Assembly: GCA_001599295.1 (NCBI GenBank)
Contig: BCGN01000003.1
Location: forward strand, 1,302,001 to 1,366,000
Length of the DNA stretch: 64,000 nucleotides
From: Sporopachydermia quercuum
Lineage: Eukaryota
Direction: 5' to 3'
Part shown: positions 3,327 through 63,767 of the stretch, piece after piece
Layout: every line of letters starts with the position of its first letter
How positions within the stretch are numbered: position 1 is the stretch's first letter
The notes under the pieces: generated by a model
Database searches by the model: none
The model's input: only the letters and a program-made list of their open reading frames with translations
What the model was told of the DNA's origin: nothing
Translations under genes and position numbers: made by a program

Positions 3327-4103
3327 ATGAATAGCGAAGGACAAGGTGTAGGGGTGACCGCCTATCTGATCCCAAAACCAAAGAAGAATTATGGAGAAAT
3401 GACACCGGAAGAACAAGCAGAAGCTGGTGCTCTTGCAATGATGAATTTTATGCAATCATGTCCTGGTAAATCAATCTTTGCTGGTGTCACTGGATTTGCT
3501 TTAGGNGGTGTTTTTGGTTTGTTTATGGCTAGTATGTCCTACGATGCTCCTGGTGTTGGTATGGGTCAAAAGAACCCTATTTCAGATTTGCCTTTCAAAC
3601 AACAAATGAAAATTCAATTTACAGATATGGGGAAACGTTCATGGTCTAGTGCTAAGAATTTTGGTTATCTTGGTTTTGTTTTCACTGGTGTCGAGTGTTC
3701 TATTGAATCTGTAAGTGTTGTTAGATTTGCCGGTAGAGCTTCAGTAGTTCAGAAACTATTTAAGCCGTCATGTATATATAGTATTCATAATACTAACATT
3801 GAATAGCTGAGAGCTAAGAATGATATCTACAATGGAGTTGCTGCTGGTTGTTTGACTGGTGGAGGATTGGCTATTAAATCAGGACCTCAAGCAGCTTTAT
3901 TAGGATGTGCAGGGTTTGCAGCATTTTCTACAGCAAGTAAGTAACTGGACATTAGGTGTTGATGGCGCTATTAGTTTATATTTTGGAGGCTGTGCTATAT
4001 GGCAGCAGTTCTAAGAACAATCACTAACCTATTTTTTCCTGCAGTTGATTTATACATGAGAAGTGATGAAGCCCCACCTCCGGCCAACGATTATGATTCA
4101 TAG
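3327..4103 (+). CDS. TIM22: Mitochondrial inner membrane translocase Tim22; exons 3327..3710, 3807..3936, 4045..4103
   Basis: SCPGKS...[15 protein letters not shown] and SSAKNFG motifs. The spliced product continues [16 protein letters not shown] and AFSTA|IDLYMR across canonical GTAAGT/CTAAC/YAG introns. Confidence 0.95.
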
Positions 4104-23473: not shown

Positions 23474-25387
23474 CTATTTCTGTTTCAAAACCCTTTTGGG
23501 ATCTACACCTTTCCTCCTAAGTTTCTTTGTTAGATTCTTCGTGATAATCTCACTATCTTCGTCTTCATTAAAGTCAGCGAAATCACCATTGATCAGACTT
23601 TCTTCTTCATTTCTTGCTAATCCTTCCTTTTCTTTGGCTCCAGCCTTAGAATTGTCATGCGGACTTGATTCAATCTTCTTGAATTTAGCGACGTAGAAAC
23701 CATCGACATTATATGTATGAGGATAATAACGTCTCGTTAATTTTAATGATGGATGAAAATGTTTACCTCGAAAGCTAGTGAAACCTTCTTTACCAATTTC
23801 TAAACCAGTGTCTACCAACTTAACATTAGGTCTTTTCCTTAAAGCATAATCAACAACAGCTTCATCTTCATCTACAGTCACTGAACATGTGGAGTACACG
23901 ATATAACCACCAGTAGGAGAATCGGCATCAACTGAGTCAATCGCAGATAACAGCAGTTGCTTTTGAAGATGGGGCAATTGAATGAAATCCTTTTCAGTTC
24001 TTGACACTTTAACACTCTCATCCTTTGAAATAACACCAGTACCTGAACAAGGAGCATCTAATAATACCCTATCAAATCCACCAATAACTTTAGGAAACTC
24101 TCTTGCATCATAATTACATACAATAGTATTATTACAACCCAATCGATGAATATTAGCAATAAGGGACTTGGTACGAGCTTTGTTAGCATCATTAGCGAAT
24201 ACACAACCAGTATTTTTCATTAATGCTGACAAATAAGTAGTCTTACCACCGGGAGCAGCAGCCATATCTAACACTCTTTCATTTTCTTGTGGAGCTAAAG
24301 CCATAACAGGAAGAAAAGATGATGCAGCCTGTAAAATATAATAACCAGCAAGATATTCTGGAGTAGCACCAATTGGAACTTGAGAATCAAACACTTGTAA
24401 ACCGACTTTAGTCCATGGACCAATTGGTTGTAAATTAACACCTCTATTAATTAACATTTGTGCTAAGTCACGTCTTCTAGTCTTTAATGTATTTGCTCTT
24501 ATCGTAACAGGACGAGCGATCTCGTTTGCTTCAAAGAATTCAATTGCTTCTGAAGGTGAGAACAATTCGAATAACTTTTGAGCTAAGAATGGTGTATATC
24601 CAAAGTATTTACAAATATCTCTAATCAGTTGCTCAGTATACTCTGTTCTACTTCTGCCTTCTTCTGCTAAGCTCTTGAAATCTTCTAGAACACGAACAAT
24701 TTCAAGCATTCGGGTTCTAATCATCGTAACATCTTCATTTTCTTCTGCATCATCAGCATTCTCCGGTAAAATAACAGCTCGTGGTTCTTGTTGATTGAGT
24801 AATTCTTCTTCAGCTTCTTCTTCCATTTCTTGTTGTGCCAGATCCAGTTTTCTCGACAACGCTTCCATATTAGCTGCATTTAACATATCTTCATCTTCGT
24901 CGTCATCACTGAACATTGGTTTCTCTTGATCATCGTCAGAATCATAGAAATCTTTGTTATCCTCATCATCGTCATCATCATCACTACCAATACCTGATAA
25001 ATCCAATTCATCATCTTCTAAATCCTCCAGACCCTCAACCTCATCGTCGTTATCACTATCATCAAACAGGCTTAATTTCTCCTTTTCTAAATGTTTCAAG
25101 TCCTCTTCATCTAAATCCTCAGCTGGATAGGAAACATTATCTTCCAGCTCCTCCTCTTCAACATTTCTTTGTTTCTTGGACTTCTTAAGTTTGGTAGAAC
25201 CTGATTCTGATGTTTTAACCTTTTTCGCTTTAGTGCTGCGTTCTGATTTACCATTGGACTCTAATTTCGACGAAACTTTCCTCTTCTTTGATTCTTTATC
25301 ATTGCTATCTCTCTTTCCTTTGTAGATTTTATTGAATTCATCTAAACTAGGAGGAACTCCTTGTTTACCTTTAGCTTTACGACCCAT
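23474..25387 (-). CDS. NOP2: 25S rRNA m5C methyltransferase Nop2
   Basis: LDMAAAPGGKT, LLDAPCSGTG and VYSTCS motifs, with an acidic N-terminus. Confidence 0.97.
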   Translation of the reverse strand: MGRKAKGKQGVPPSLDEFNKIYKGKRDSNDKESKKRKVSSKLESNGKSERSTKAKKVKTSESGSTKLKKSKKQRNVEEEELEDNVSYPAEDLDEEDLKHLEKEKLSLFDDSDNDDEVEGLEDLEDDELDLSGIGSDDDDDDEDNKDFYDSDDDQEKPMFSDDDEDEDMLNAANMEALSRKLDLAQQEMEEEAEEELLNQQEPRAVILPENADDAEENEDVTMIRTRMLEIVRVLEDFKSLAEEGRSRTEYTEQLIRDICKYFGYTPFLAQKLFELFSPSEAIEFFEANEIARPVTIRANTLKTRRRDLAQMLINRGVNLQPIGPWTKVGLQVFDSQVPIGATPEYLAGYYILQAASSFLPVMALAPQENERVLDMAAAPGGKTTYLSALMKNTGCVFANDANKARTKSLIANIHRLGCNNTIVCNYDAREFPKVIGGFDRVLLDAPCSGTGVISKDESVKVSRTEKDFIQLPHLQKQLLLSAIDSVDADSPTGGYIVYSTCSVTVDEDEAVVDYALRKRPNVKLVDTGLEIGKEGFTSFRGKHFHPSLKLTRRYYPHTYNVDGFYVAKFKKIESSPHDNSKAGAKEKEGLARNEEESLINGDFADFNEDEDSEIITKNLTKKLRRKGVDPKRVLKQK

Positions 25388-25918: not shown

Positions 25919-27248
25919 TCATCTTCTTTTACGGAATCCACCAGGCTTTGTAACTTTATTACTTTTTTTCGTTTCAGCAGCTTTTTTCTTTTGCTTTGCT
26001 AATTGTTCAGCAGTCTTAGGAACTACTTTGAAAAAGCCATCAAGACGACCTTGAGGAGCGGTTTTGAGGCTTTTCTGTAACCTTGTTATACCAGAACGAA
26101 TTCTATCTTCTGAAAAACCTTTCTCCTTGACCAAATAATTAATCAGTCCATCAACATCAGGCTCAGTCCATTTCAATTCTATCGTTTCTGGATCTAGAAC
26201 ATCAGGATTCTTGAATAGCTCTCTTGCTTGCGCGTAGGGCCAATCTTCAGGAATTTTGTATTTTGACTTTGGTTCACTTTCAATCATCTCTACGATTTTT
26301 TCAATTGACTTGTGTTCTTTGATCAGTTTATAAGCGGTGGCAGGACCAACGCCTCTTATTGTTTCACAGTAATCACATCCTAAGAGGATACATAAATCAA
26401 TAAACTCGTCATAAGTCAATTCAAGTCCTTGAATAACCTTCTCATAAGATATCTCATCTACAGGCATCTTTCTTTGTTCTGAGAACGTCAAATGTCTCAA
26501 CAGATATGGTGGTTTATAACAAAGTGTATCCATATCCTCTGAAGCAGCAGCATATACTTTTCCAGCTTTAGCTAAAACAGCTGCTTGAGCTTCAGCTTCG
26601 CATGGTGCTTCAACGTAAGGTATACCCATTAATTTAAGTAGTTTCTTAGCCTCCTCATTTTGTTCCTTAGTTACTTTCACTTTCCTTTTCTCTAGTTTAG
26701 TAATCTCCTCCACTGTGCCTGTTTCCTGAATTTCCTCTGCCTTTTTAGTAGCTTCCTCTCTTCTCTCTAATCTTTTAGCTAGTTCACCTGATTTCATTAC
26801 CGGTGGTTTACCGTCAAATATATAACATGGCTTTATACCATTGTCAATCATTCTCAGTGTTCTATAAAACATTCCCATCAAATGTGATGTAGTCTCTCCA
26901 GCGTCATTTAACAATTGTTGACCATCCTGTTGTCTGACTGCAATCAGAAATTGATACAATGCCATAGATCTATTATAAAATACTAGTTAGTATTTAATTT
27001 TTCATATGATACTAAAACATGGGTATACATTCTATCGTAAGGTACTTACGCATCCTATCAATCGTTAGTATTTCTTCTATTAATAATCAAAATATCTCTT
27101 GTTCTCTCTAACAAACAAAGAAAATATACGAGAATAAAATATATCTTACAATTGCAACCTTTCTACCAAAAAAGGTCTTGATCTCAGAGGCTTTGATAGC
27201 ATAACCTGCATAATCAGCTATAAGCTGATTCAACCCTTTAATACCCAT
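25919..27248 (-). CDS. RAD27: Flap endonuclease 1; exons 27150..27248, 27050..27054 (5-nt microexon), 25919..26969
   Basis: Spliced MGIKGL...[17 protein letters not shown], plus EAEAQ, SEDMD, LLGCDY and the PIP box QGRLDGFF. Confidence 0.97.
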
Positions 27249-27439: not shown

Positions 27440-27471
27440 GCGCGTTTCTTGAACTATAAATCAGAACGCGT
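27440..27471. promoter_or_regulatory. MCB-like elements upstream of RAD27
   Basis: GCGCGT at 27440 and ACGCGT at 27466, about 200 bp upstream of the ATG. Confidence 0.65.
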
Positions 27472-29209: not shown

Positions 29210-30118
29210 ATGTCTATGTTTGGAGTATTATGTTCAGGTCGGCCTGGTATGTCTGATTGGTAATCTAATTCCATTTATAAGAATCATTGAACTTCGGTTT
29301 CTAACATTTTCTATAGTGATAACCGACCTAGAACAAGTTGACGTTAATAAATATATAGTTAGCATACCAGATGCATCCAATATCCATCATGTAGGAGTAT
29401 TTCTACTTCCTGGAGGTATGTTTGGTTGGAATCAATTGTGTAGAAAAGATTATTATCGTCTAATGATCTTAGAACGTACGACTTTTACTAACGAGCTATT
29501 AGTTAACTTAGAACCAGCATATGTTGCCTCAGTATATTTTCAATTGCCCGGGAAAGACTTTCAGCTACTTGGAGTGTATGCCGTCTGATTTGCAGTATGA
29601 TTATCGACGTTATCTTTTAACTCAGATACAATTATTGTCGTGTACATCAGTTTGAATCAAATCTAACATTTATAACTAGGATATCGAGTTCCAAACCATC
29701 CGCATTATTCAAAATATCTAGCGGTAACCAAAATGGTAAACCAATTGGCACGGGGACAGGCATGGTAAATGGATTTTCATACAGTAACGACTTCAGTATT
29801 GGTAATAGCAATGGCAATGGTAACAATAGCAGTTTCCCTGTGATAATAGGAATTTCTATTGAATCTGCAGATCAAGCACAACAAACACTAGAAGCAGAGA
29901 AACAAAGGCCAAATGGATTTAGTGTAGGCGAAATAGCTAAATCTAATCCTCAAGGAACTGCTGAACTAGCAAACAAAATCATTCAACATGCATATAATTA
30001 CTTGAGTGGATTCGAAGATATGAGCGGGAAAGTTTCTTTGAAACATTTTAATGATTGGTGGGATAAATTTAAGAATAGATTGAGCGTAGATCCTAAATTT
30101 CTTGATAGGGTAAATTAG
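29210..30118 (+). CDS. OPI10: Hikeshi/Opi10 family protein; exons 29210..29246, 29317..29415, 29503..29575, 29680..30118
   Basis: MFGVLCSGRP, HVGVFLLP, FQLLG|VISSSKPSALFK, IGISIE, AYNYLSGF and WWDKF...DPKFL motifs. Intron phases are consistent. Confidence 0.92.
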
Positions 30119-40205: not shown

Positions 40206-41170
40206 TTACTCCTTATCTGTGTCTTCCTTTTCTCTTTCATCTTTAAGCTCGCCAATTAAATCTCCAATTTGATGAAACCGGTGATTATGATACAATATTC
40301 CTCCCTTAGGTTCTTGTCTATGCTCTATACCTAATACCTTAGCAACCCATATCTCATGATCATGTACTTGGAAGACATTCATCTTCTCACAGTATAAAAC
40401 ATCTACTGCTGAGGCTATCGTTGGTATATGATTTTCTTTCTGTTCNCTGTTAACAGCAGAATCCCATAAATCAAACTGCTTCTGAGTTACTATGAAATCG
40501 TGTGACTGTTTTTCATGTTCTGTCAGTTTGTCTAAAGAAGATCTTGCTCTAAAGGTTACATCATTATCAAATGGATCATCGGTTGAATTCTCGATTGCCT
40601 TGGCACCAGCAGCAAATTTCTTGCACAAATCTACTGAAGATTTAGTTGGTGGCAATACATTTAAAGAGAAATGTTTTGACTCATGTAATAACTTAGAAGT
40701 GCTTGAAGGAACCTGCATGTTGAATTGAATTAAAGGTGTTGGGTAAACTGAAAGTGAAGTAGCTGATGAAAGGGTCATTCCTCTGTTGATATTCTCTGCA
40801 GATACTAGTAAGATCATAGCTGAAAAACGTTGGTTAGTAGGTGTCATAAAAGCCTTCCATATAATAAGATTACTGATTTACAATATAATTTAGACGTTTC
40901 AGCAAACGATTTCTTGTGTGTGTGCGTGTGTGTGCGTGTGTGTATACTTTCTTAATCATATAACATACCTTGAGATGAGATGCCACTCATGACCTTTTTG
41001 AAAGAGGTATGGATTGGGGTATTAGGTCTTTTGGGAACAGTAATGTCCCTAGTAGTAGCATTAGTACTACCACTACCACTACCACTACCACTGCCACTGC
41101 CACTGCTATACCATCTCCATAGTATCCTTCTAGTAGTATTCAATGTTGGTGCCCGTATCCTCAGCATCAT
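40206..41170 (-). CDS. Flavin reductase-like FMN-binding protein, probably mitochondrial; exons 40969..41170, 40206..40819
   Basis: Arg-rich N-terminal presequence. FKKVMSGISSQ|AMIL, RGMTLSS, P..QFN and VHDHEIW motifs. GTATGT...TACTAAC...CAG intron. Confidence 0.85.
40915..40943. repeat. (GT)n dinucleotide microsatellite inside the intron
   Basis: Read directly. Confidence 0.9.
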
Positions 41171-41913: not shown

Positions 41914-43497
41914 TTAAAAACTAAATAACGATACTTCGAACTGAAGACCTGGTTTTGACACATCACTTGGTCTATCAGTTAATGGGAAACAATAACTGAG
42001 ATCAACAGAGGCAATGCTCGACTTATATACTAAACCAAGACCAGCAGCATATGCAAATTCTCCAAGTTCAGTCTTCAAAGCTGTTGGAGATAATAAAGAT
42101 TTAGTAAATCCTTGAGGAGTTGAATATAAATTTCCACCATTGACAAATAGTTGGAATCTTAAAGGAGAGCTAGGATTGATTTTTGGTAATCTTGAGAACA
42201 AACTAATGCCACCAGAAACGAATGATTCACCTCCAATGTAATCATTACCATCTTTAATTCCTAATCTATTTCTTTGGAAACCCTTTATTGATTCTGGTCC
42301 GCCAAGGAAAAATCTATCAGAAATATGAGTATGTGGCTTCTCAGTATTAAGGCTTGCAATTGCGCCAGCATTAACGTTGAATGACACGGTGAAGAAGTCT
42401 TTGAAGAAAGATTTGACAAATAATGAGGTGAATTGGGATTTGAAGAACTTCTCATTTGATGCTAAAGTACCTAAACCTGAATATTCACCATCAAATTTCA
42501 ACAATGAACCATTCTTGGCGAAGGACGAGACAAATTCCAAGTTATTCGATAAAGCAGAGGCAAAAATACTTGTTTTTAATGAATCACCTGCATCACGCTT
42601 AACTGAATCACTTGCTGTTGCTCCTATACCTGTGAGGCTTCTTACTACTGTACTAATACCAACTTCACTGGTAGTAGTTAACTTACTACTATTTGATGAC
42701 CGTACCACACTGGCAATAAATCCACGGTTCAACTGTTTATGTGATGCCCATGTAGAGTCTGATGATGTTAGGAAAGTATTCAATTTCAACTGCGAGTTAC
42801 CAGCTTTTTGAAACGGACTAATAAATGTAGCACTACAAGCTTTAGCTTTAGGATGTTTACCTAAGAACCCATTAAGCTCAACTGTTTCACTGTTGCCCAA
42901 AGCATTGTTGTTGAGATAGCTGAAACCAAATGCACCAAACCCATCATTAGTATGAGTCAAGCAGCTTTTCTGATTCACAACATTGGTTTTGACGTCAATC
43001 CTTGCATCAACAACTAATGGCCCTGATTTTGAATCAATATTGATAGCGTCAAGTCTAACAACCGCATCTTGAATAACATTATAGCTTTTCAAGTTTTTTG
43101 CCACTTTTTCTGAATTTCCTAATATTGACGCAACTGTATGGTTTGTGCTGAATAATAAAGGCTTCAATTGGGCCTTAAGAAAGCTATCGTTCAAATCGCC
43201 AGCTCCATTAACTACCACTTGATTAAGTGATACTGGTCTAGTAGATGACCTCGAGATCTGGATAATGACTTATGTTAACAATATTGCGATCTCAATCAAT
43301 TTTAGAAAAAAAATTTAGATTTAAATACTTACAGTTGATGGAAGATTATCTGAGATTTGCCAGGGTGAAGCTACTGGTGGTGGCTGTTAAAGTCTATGGT
43401 TAGTATCTGTGTCTTGAAAAAGAATAAATAGGTGCAATTACAGGCAGGGAAGGTGAAGTTCCAGACAAAGACTTACAGTAAAAAATTCATCCGCCAT
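41914..43497 (-). CDS. SAM50: Mitochondrial SAM complex subunit Sam50 (Omp85 family); exons 43477..43497, 43333..43383, 41914..43257
   Basis: DRFFLGGPESIKGF, DYIGG, FVNGG, GLGLVY and C-terminal PGLQF..S.F motifs. Two short 5' exons are in frame. Confidence 0.9.
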
Positions 43498-62506: not shown

Positions 62507-63767
62507 CTAATCCAACCGCCTCCATGCTTTGCTGTTCAATGAAAGATTTCCACTAGTCTTAGACCTGCGTACAGGAGATGAAGCAATAATTTCCAGCTTA
62601 CCAGGAACAAATCGAGAACTAGTACCTCCCAACTTTTGACCAATATTACCAACTGACAAACTACCAGCAGTACTTGTAGACTTTCTAATTGGCGTGGTTT
62701 GATTATTATTATTACTGTCATTGAGATTTCGAAGATTGCTGGATAATTTATTCATTGAAGTTGCACGAGACAAGGATCTCATACTAGTACTCTGGGGAAT
62801 CCGACTTCCAGATACCTTCAAGGATGGAATCGAATGAGTTTTTGGTTTTATTGCCACATCAGGTGTTCTTTCTAGAATATTAACAGGTTTAGAATTAAAG
62901 ATATTCCCATGAGGATTACTGGAAGCTGATTTGGTTTTATCTAGATTGATCGTTGGCAGCCGAGATCTTGATGGTGATTTATGCAATTTAGACAGTGATT
63001 TTCCCGTACTATTCGCAAAGAGATCCATACCTTGCTTCCGGGGACTTGTATGCAGAGTCTCTTTGGTGATAGTGTTTCCTTGGTTAGGATTATTAGGATT
63101 ATCATTATAAGGATCAATTTCTTGATACTGCGAATTATTAAAACCAGTACGACGTCTTTTGCTTGCACTTGATATGGTTGTACCTGTTAGTCGTTTACCT
63201 GTAGGAGTGTCTAGTATTTTATTTTGACTAATAGTATTGATATCCACATCCATATTACTATCAGGGCGATTGCTTCTATAAGGAGAACAGTCCTCATGAA
63301 TTTGAACCGTCCTGCTTGGTGGTAGATAGGTTGATGAGGATGCAATTGAAGCCATGTTGTTAAACCGTTTCTTGTGAATTATGTTATACCTTTTGCTGAT
63401 AGACGTCCTGCCAGCAGGACTTCTAGTAGGTGAGTTCATATCTGAGTTAAGTAATGAGGAGAAATTTGATTTTGCTAGCTCCTGTGATGCGATTCCTAGA
63501 TATAAAGTTAGTAAAATGACTCTAAAAGTGATGACAAATATTTCATTTTCCATGAAACTTACGTTGAGCTCTTGCATTCAGTTCATTAAACACATCATCT
63601 GTTAATCGTTTACTGTACCCCATTTCCGTCAACATCTCACTTTCAACTTCTCCTGAATCATGTGTGACTTTCCTAGGACTAGAAAACCCATTGAAATTGC
63701 GATTACTTTCCGGTGACAATGTAGTCCTTTTTCCTGCTAAGGAGACCTTTGATGCTGTCGATTTCAT
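62507..63767 (-). CDS. Basic Ser/Thr-rich 397-aa protein with a NuSAP-like motif; exons 63563..63767, 62507..63495
   Basis: Intron 63496..63562 (GTAAGT...TACTAAC...TAG) joins the two overlapping ORFs in frame (FNELNARAQ|RIASQE). Contains RYNIIHKKRFNNMASI. Confidence 0.8.

Follow-up and report, generated by a model that had tools for sequence, protein, structure and literature searches.

Does a five-nucleotide exon supply the catalytic aspartate of a flap endonuclease and, if it does, is it a device for regulating the enzyme or an inheritance that every productive transcript must carry? The question arises from a gene resembling FEN1/RAD27 on the minus strand of a 64,000-nucleotide stretch of Sporopachydermia quercuum DNA (the window), for which an earlier note, made from the sequence alone, had proposed that Asp34 is encoded by a microexon, GATGC, whose inclusion could act as an on/off splicing switch. 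The exons, introns and motifs described there were confirmed base for base. Exon 1 (27150-27248; 99 nt) comprises 33 codons, from the ATG at 27248-27246 to that of Ile33 (MGIKGLNQL...FFGRKVAI). It is followed by intron 1 (27055-27149; 95 nt, GTAAGA...TAG), a phase 0 intron between codons 33 and 34 with a TACTAAC branch-point box at 27064-27070 whose branch adenosine is 27065; by the 5-nt exon GATGC (27050-27054), made up of the Asp34 codon and bases 1 and 2 of the Ala35 codon; and by intron 2 (26970-27049; 80 nt, GTAAGT...ATAG), a phase 2 intron interrupting codon 35 after its second base, with a TACTAAC box at 26986-26992 recognized from the sequence and from motif counts for the window. Exon 3 (25919-26969) completes the Ala35 codon with its last base, encodes Ser36 to Arg384, includes the stop codon and bears the remainder of the XPG_N domain, the XPG_I domain and the C-terminal tail. 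The internal exon GATGC would owe its existence to two ordinary U2-type GT-AG introns placed 5 nt apart.

Exon 1, GATGC and exon 3, when joined, form an in-frame coding sequence of 1155 nt that specifies 384 amino acids (..VAI-D-A-SMALYQ..). Other ways of reading the region end in premature stops: skipping of GATGC not only loses Asp34 but, as the earlier note had said, shifts the frame, a stop appearing 21 codons downstream in the translated window sequence, while translation into a retained intron 1 reaches a stop after 13 codons of intron. A single long intron in place of the pair was rejected, as it too gives a stop. The branch box of intron 2 directly abuts a TAG (26985-26983), whose AG (26984-26983) is the first after the box; it was tried as the acceptor and rejected, since it lies 3 nt from the branch adenosine and produces a stop if used. 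Being both too near the branch adenosine and stop-producing, it leaves the second AG, at 26971-26970, as the acceptor that intron 2 must use. Precise removal of both introns would then be needed to create the Asp34-Ala35 junction and to keep the frame.

The protein so assembled bears out the splicing pattern. The Pfam profile XPG_N (PF00752) matches exon 1 over profile positions 1-31 (E = 8.4e-06) and exon 3 over positions 34-101 (E = 2.7e-21), so that without the microexon exactly two residues, Asp34 and Ala35, are absent; the earlier claim that GATGC restores I33-D34-A35-S36-M37 is upheld by the joined 384-residue protein, in which these two open profile positions are filled. XPG_I (PF00867) is found in exon 3 (E = 6e-30), and alignment of exon 3 with human FEN1 structures (E = 2e-124) places its first residue at Ser36 (chain 8yjh_D, residues 36-378). 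The order of XPG_N and XPG_I with a short spacer between them, within 384 residues, is the FEN1 arrangement, and the top-scoring relatives bear the name flap endonuclease 1. Of 8000 candidates scored against the exon 3 protein, 6183 are relatives at E <= 1e-30; the top 120 of the 6183 are nearly all budding-yeast flap endonucleases, headed by those of Nadsonia fulvescens (75% identity) and Wickerhamomyces anomalus (75%) and an unnamed protein of 345 residues (76%), and none of these 120 is nearer than 75-76%. As judged by these matches, the gene is the FEN1/RAD27 flap endonuclease of an intron-moderate ascomycete yeast, its protein being closest to the FEN1s of Saccharomycotina. Its downstream neighbour, also on the minus strand (23477-25387), encodes a 637-residue RNA cytosine methyltransferase of the NOP2/RsmB type (PF01189, E = 6.6e-77), the N-terminal region of which is long and acidic.

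The active site is complete once the microexon is in place. In the structure alignment the acidic residues of the segments ..FDGKPP.., ..EAEA.., ..SEDMD.. and ..GCDY.. are aligned and identical in human FEN1, segments which we take to be the sites of the other metal-binding acidic residues of the human enzyme; the remaining one, Asp34, is provided by GATGC. That Asp34 is an active-site carboxylate of FEN1, as the earlier note had stated, is substantiated by the human enzyme, whose D34N form is reported to be about 80000-fold slower (PMC13333337), and on that basis Asp34 is catalytically critical.

The open frame of exon 3 starts just upstream of Met37, and a truncated human FEN1 isoform arising by alternative translation initiation has been described (PMC3652857), from which it could be argued that the region is not spliced as we propose, the gene being in decay or yielding only an N-terminally truncated product begun at Met37. 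Such a product would lack Asp34 along with the N-terminal segment, and its synthesis would have to contend with the capture of ribosomes by the upstream ATG; a decaying gene, for its part, would hardly be expected to combine an intact exon 1, matching the family N-terminus over 33 codons, with splice signals that are all canonical, in a structure conserved across fungi (below). We regard this reading as extremely improbable.

Are the two introns ordinary ones for this genome? The window, at 35.8% G+C, contains 19 TACTAAC boxes where 7.75 are expected, a number reached in 0/100 shuffles, and 8 matches (at 4 distinct places) to the composite GTAAG..TACTAAC..AG where 0.26 are expected. Further TACTAAC boxes are accompanied by a GTAAGT or GTATGT donor 50-130 nt upstream and by an AG, the first usable one, 5-16 nt downstream; in the FEN1 gene the box ends 9 nt from the acceptor in intron 1 and 16 nt from it in intron 2, spacings similar to those of the other candidate introns. 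Since these boxes have like donors and AG spacing, the FEN1 introns look normal for this genome, and each has, as far as sequence can tell, the donor, TACTAAC box and 3' AG of a yeast U2-type intron. The sequencing runs listed as containing the stretch are three, all of DNA, and removal of the introns is predicted from these signals. Candidate introns elsewhere in the window lie at 43384-43476, 63496-63562 and about 40826-40968 on the minus strand and at about 37-135, about 3711-3806 and about 29416-29502 on the plus strand; several further short introns are probable in the window, and the genome appears to have more introns than that of S. cerevisiae.

The spacing of the signals bears on how the pair might be spliced. 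Counted from the branch adenosine of intron 1, the G of its own acceptor is 10 nt downstream and the donor of intron 2 is 16 nt downstream, a separation at which two spliceosomes would probably be unable to assemble together; removal of the two introns is most likely sequential. This has a parallel in plants, where the splicing machinery is said not to form on the two flanks of a microexon at once, and where splicing of a flanking intron is delayed for more than 72% of constitutive microexons (PMC8831610). Whatever the order, a productive mRNA must carry the microexon, because skipping or retention truncates the frame and Asp34 is needed; inclusion can be presumed constitutive.

To learn whether the arrangement is peculiar to this yeast, metagenome contigs were scanned with the exon 3 protein, yielding 80 FEN1 loci, fungal and other, in each of which the ends corresponding to '..GRKVAI' and 'SM..' were placed by tblastn and the DNA in between was read. 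Among the 77 loci that could be scored, 30 (26 distinct sequences) have two introns and a 5-nt exon at the site; one (L018) has intron 1 only; five (L046, L071, L073, L075 and L078) have intron 2 only, with GATGC fused to exon 1; and 41 have no intron, the two ends being separated by a 6-nt gap, GAYGCN. All 30 two-intron loci conform to the pattern GT...AG | GA[TC]GC | GT...AG plus one base, at the same codon positions as in the window gene: the microexon reads GATGC in 26 of them and GACGC in 4, the introns measure 47-83 nt, and in the fungal loci the branch-to-acceptor distance is 9-15 nt. The unscored loci are L052, L063, from which the site region is absent, and L065. The first of these, its contig ending inside intron 1, is a further case of the microexon (...CAG|GATGC|GTGCGT...CAG|A). 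The last (L065:377-560) is an AT-rich, non-fungal-looking FEN1 relative in which an intron separates Gly28 from Arg29, 5 codons upstream of the fungal site, and which has none at Asp34. At the level of sequence, then, GATGC has the attributes of a constitutive coding microexon: it is no longer than 15 nt, it lies between two introns, it is needed for the frame and for conserved residues, and it is conserved in orthologues.

To label the loci, a profile of ten locus proteins was searched and each locus was then compared with the named matches; on a protein so conserved, the labels denote nearest matches and not identifications. Compared in this way over 190 residues, the proteins nearest to the microexon loci belong to four classes of Pezizomycotina: Dothideomycetes (Botryosphaeria and Lasiodiplodia, at 91-96% identity), Leotiomycetes (Coleophoma, Hyphodiscus and Lachnellula, 93-97%), Sordariomycetes (Chaetomium, Immersiella, Anthostomella, Corynascus, Coniochaeta and Cytospora, 92-98%) and Lecanoromycetes (Xanthomendoza, 92%). 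The 46 Pezizomycotina-like loci divide into 31 with the microexon (the 30 scored and L052), 6 with one intron and 9 with none. Dothideomycete-like loci are found in all four intron states, which fits repeated independent loss of introns. The site has no intron in any of the 14 yeast-like metagenome loci (L001-L014), making the window gene the only direct budding-yeast example in this comparison; its claim to ancestry rests on identity of position and phase. The remaining 18 intron-less loci are distant relatives whose identity to a Mucoromycota protein is <=72%; many lie on short contigs that may derive from transcripts.

Two other intron positions came to light in these loci, both of them vacant in the window gene. 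Many Pezizomycotina-like loci (L049, L051, L053-L055, L060, L061, L068-L072, L074, L079, L080 and others) show a break in the exon 3 frame just after ..M[DE]RKQ, around residue 230 and about 590-630 nt into the exon, which indicates another conserved intron. An intron just after MG[IV]K(G) is common in CTG-clade-like yeasts and filamentous fungi (L001-L003, L010, L015-L026 and others, in which the exon 1 match begins at residue 5 or 6; among proteins, P0019, P0023, P0034, P0035 and P0046), and it explains many database models with an internal or spurious start.

It was the earlier note's own suggestion that intron positions be compared across fungi, with wide conservation taken to favour an ancestral feature over a regulatory one, and the conservation found here is wide. 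Because the positions and phases of both introns are identical in the window yeast and in four classes of filamentous ascomycetes, we take their origin to be ancestral: the pair and its 5-nt exon would have been inherited, as in the many Pezizomycotina that have them at the same positions and in the same phases, from at least the common ancestor of budding yeasts and filamentous ascomycetes, as parsimony implies, and one or both introns would later have been deleted precisely in many lineages, including most of the budding yeasts sampled. Could yeast and filamentous fungi instead have acquired both introns independently, the microexon not being ancestral at all? The lack of the microexon in the 14 yeast-like loci is what such convergence would lead one to expect, and the intron sequences share no features beyond their splice signals. 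Convergence, however, requires that two introns, at identical codon positions and in identical phases, 5 nt apart, have arisen twice, and at flanking exon bases, ..ATT|GAT and ..GC|N, which do not resemble the usual proto-splice sites, whose consensus is MAG|R. An established pattern also speaks for inheritance: budding yeasts have undergone massive intron loss with retention at the 5' ends of genes, and the FEN1 introns, which begin 99 nt from the ATG, fit such retention. We consider independent gain very unlikely. The microexon is best viewed as an ancestral ascomycete feature, inherited and very probably always included, a reading to which we assign a probability of about 0.85.

How much further back the microexon might go was approached through a listing centred on Mucoromycota FEN1, which added 103 new proteins, about 84 of them from early-diverging fungi by a hand count of names. 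The sequence VAIDASM is intact in 98 of them and none starts at Met37, figures to be read in the light of a full-length query, which favours complete N-termini. This hints, though faintly, that the microexon is absent from early-diverging fungi. The 103 proteins include no Basidiomycota or Taphrinomycotina, groups unsampled in all our listings, and the estimate of age is confined to Ascomycota. Two Cunninghamella blakesleeana proteins (P0273 and P0286) read VAINASM, Asn replacing the catalytic Asp34 in an otherwise contiguous N-terminus; they may represent a paralogue, a variant or a sequencing error.

The structure could still have a regulatory use. Variable inclusion of the microexon might turn FEN1 on and off, skipped or retained transcripts being passed to nonsense-mediated decay: both kinds do yield early stops, the donor of intron 1, GTAAGA, is the only one of its kind among TACTAAC-associated donors in the window (the rest are GTAAGT or GTATGT), selection could explain why so awkward a structure has been kept for so long, and one regulated microexon has been reported from a filamentous fungus (PMC11121469). 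The same source reports that the length of regulated cassette microexons is usually a multiple of three (PMC11121469). The FEN1 exon, at 5 nt, is not, and skipping it gives a stop and no translatable isoform, hence no alternative protein. Nor is the structure indispensable, as shown by clean loss of one intron in 6 loci or of both in 41 in many lineages, while its wide conservation, in 30/77 scorable loci, is that of an inherited feature rather than of a switch. An RNA secondary structure that would present the microexon was sought and rejected: the 221 nt around it fold with a minimum free energy of -35.6 kcal/mol, no better than shuffled sequences (mean -35.67; z = 0.02). Upstream of the gene, ACGCGT at 27466-27471 and a second ACGCG core at 27441-27445, about 220 and 195 nt from the ATG, resemble the MluI cell-cycle boxes of G1/S genes and would suggest ordinary transcriptional control; ACGCGT occurs 6 times in the window, where 1.93 sites are expected. 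The switch put forward in the earlier note, which would have to operate through a frame-breaking exon, thus finds no support here, and we think it unlikely.

A related but distinct idea is that selection has kept the intron pair for the kinetics of its removal. Splicing would be slow and ordered, because two spliceosomes could not sit 5 nt apart, and would couple FEN1 output to spliceosome capacity or to the cell cycle, with nonsense-mediated decay clearing the mis-spliced RNA. If true, this would explain why an intron-reduced yeast has kept the structure of its ascomycete ancestor, and would mean that it regulates an essential, dosage-sensitive replication nuclease; we hold it to be no less doubtful than the switch. 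Constitutive inclusion of an inherited exon remains our preferred reading.

A 5-nt exon is easily missed, and public gene models show how often. We examined 120 proteins in a Pezizomycotina-centred listing obtained with an exon-3-only profile, which is unbiased by N-termini: 63 have the correct VAIDASM, 23 start at Met37 and the remaining 34 are aberrant. These comprise a fusion protein from a moth, whose variant is contiguous, and 33 fungal models in which wrong or inserted residues stand immediately ahead of Ser36-Met37, on the pattern VAI, then junk, then SM. The junction is therefore wrong in 56/119 fungal models, and reference strains are affected too (Chaetomium globosum, Fonsecaea pedrosoi and Capronia epimyces). 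The 63 correct models imply that annotators have implicitly used the 5-nt exon where both introns exist. In a yeast-centred listing of the same size (n = 120), 89 models have VAIDASM, 28 start at Met37 and 3 are odd. These Met37 starts were set aside as proof of a microexon in yeasts, being ambiguous: after Met1 the next Met is residue 37, and the same truncation would follow from an intron near Gly5, such as that in L001-L003 and L010. The locus whose nearest named protein is from Lipomyces (L001) has the Gly5 intron and none at Asp34. The model from Limtongia smithiae (P0027), MYEHQAHSNR-SM..., offers a slight hint of an acceptor before Ser36. The earlier note's guess that automated annotation would cut this gene back to MALYQ thus describes an error frequent among relatives; the exact Met37-truncated protein that the window gene itself would give was not found in a collection of 15 billion proteins.

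The same listings revealed an error of naming. At least 26 of the 120 Pezizomycotina-centred flap endonuclease 1 proteins are called 'Elongation of fatty acids protein 2' at NCBI, by hand count. The name is also borne by proteins in the Mucoromycota-centred listing (examples from the two listings are P0126, P0128, P0136, P0137, P0169, P0197 and P0198) and by P0107 in the yeast-centred one. The cause is probably a collision with a S. cerevisiae gene alias, FEN1 being in that species another name for ELO2.

No paper on a FEN1/RAD27 microexon turned up, whether in searches on RAD27 microexons, fungal FEN1 intron positions and Pezizomycotina micro-exons or in wider ones. The closest described phenomenon is the pervasive misannotation of conserved small microexons in plants (PMC8831610). 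Plant constitutive microexons of <=15 nt are likewise ultra-short, conserved and needed for protein function; they are often missed or mis-spliced in annotation, and their flanking introns are probably not handled together (PMC8831610). The present case differs in being fungal and in concerning a DNA-replication nuclease, whose active-site aspartate is carried on 5 nt; the words 'flap', 'FEN1' and 'fungi' do not occur in the plant study (PMC8831610). Fungal microexons are described as little characterised, with experimental tests only in S. pombe (PMC11121469). The microexon of Trichoderma virens Xlr2 also resides in an ascomycete gene, but it is included alternatively to give two protein isoforms (PMC11121469), whereas that of FEN1 cannot be skipped in frame and would always be included. 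Complex intervening sequences and stwintrons of Lipomyces and other fungi resemble the FEN1 pair in being close or nested U2 introns spliced consecutively (PMC7138796); the FEN1 introns, however, are separate, with 5 exonic nt between them, and neither interrupts a splice signal of the other. Endonuclease genes are not mentioned in that study (PMC7138796). Among fungal genes the nearest counterparts are the orthologous Pezizomycotina models with the correct junction, to which the window adds a budding-yeast-like genome that has kept the microexon.

The FEN1 5-nt exon is thus real and, by parsimony, ancient; its inclusion is very probably constitutive, and it was already implicit in the correct public models. 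It opens no new mechanism. Its practical consequence is that the junction is a systematic annotation trap, and the site could be used as a benchmark for annotation pipelines; with 56 of 119 fungal models faulty, catalogues of 'FEN1 without catalytic Asp' or 'truncated FEN1' in fungi are artefacts. For the biology of the family, what stands out is that ascomycetes very distant from one another have kept a five-base exon for a catalytic residue of this essential nuclease of replication and repair. Such an exon provides a clean natural test case of how intron-defining spliceosomes deal with exons of near-zero length, and the pattern in which its two flanking introns are present or absent offers a concise marker of intron loss in Ascomycota.
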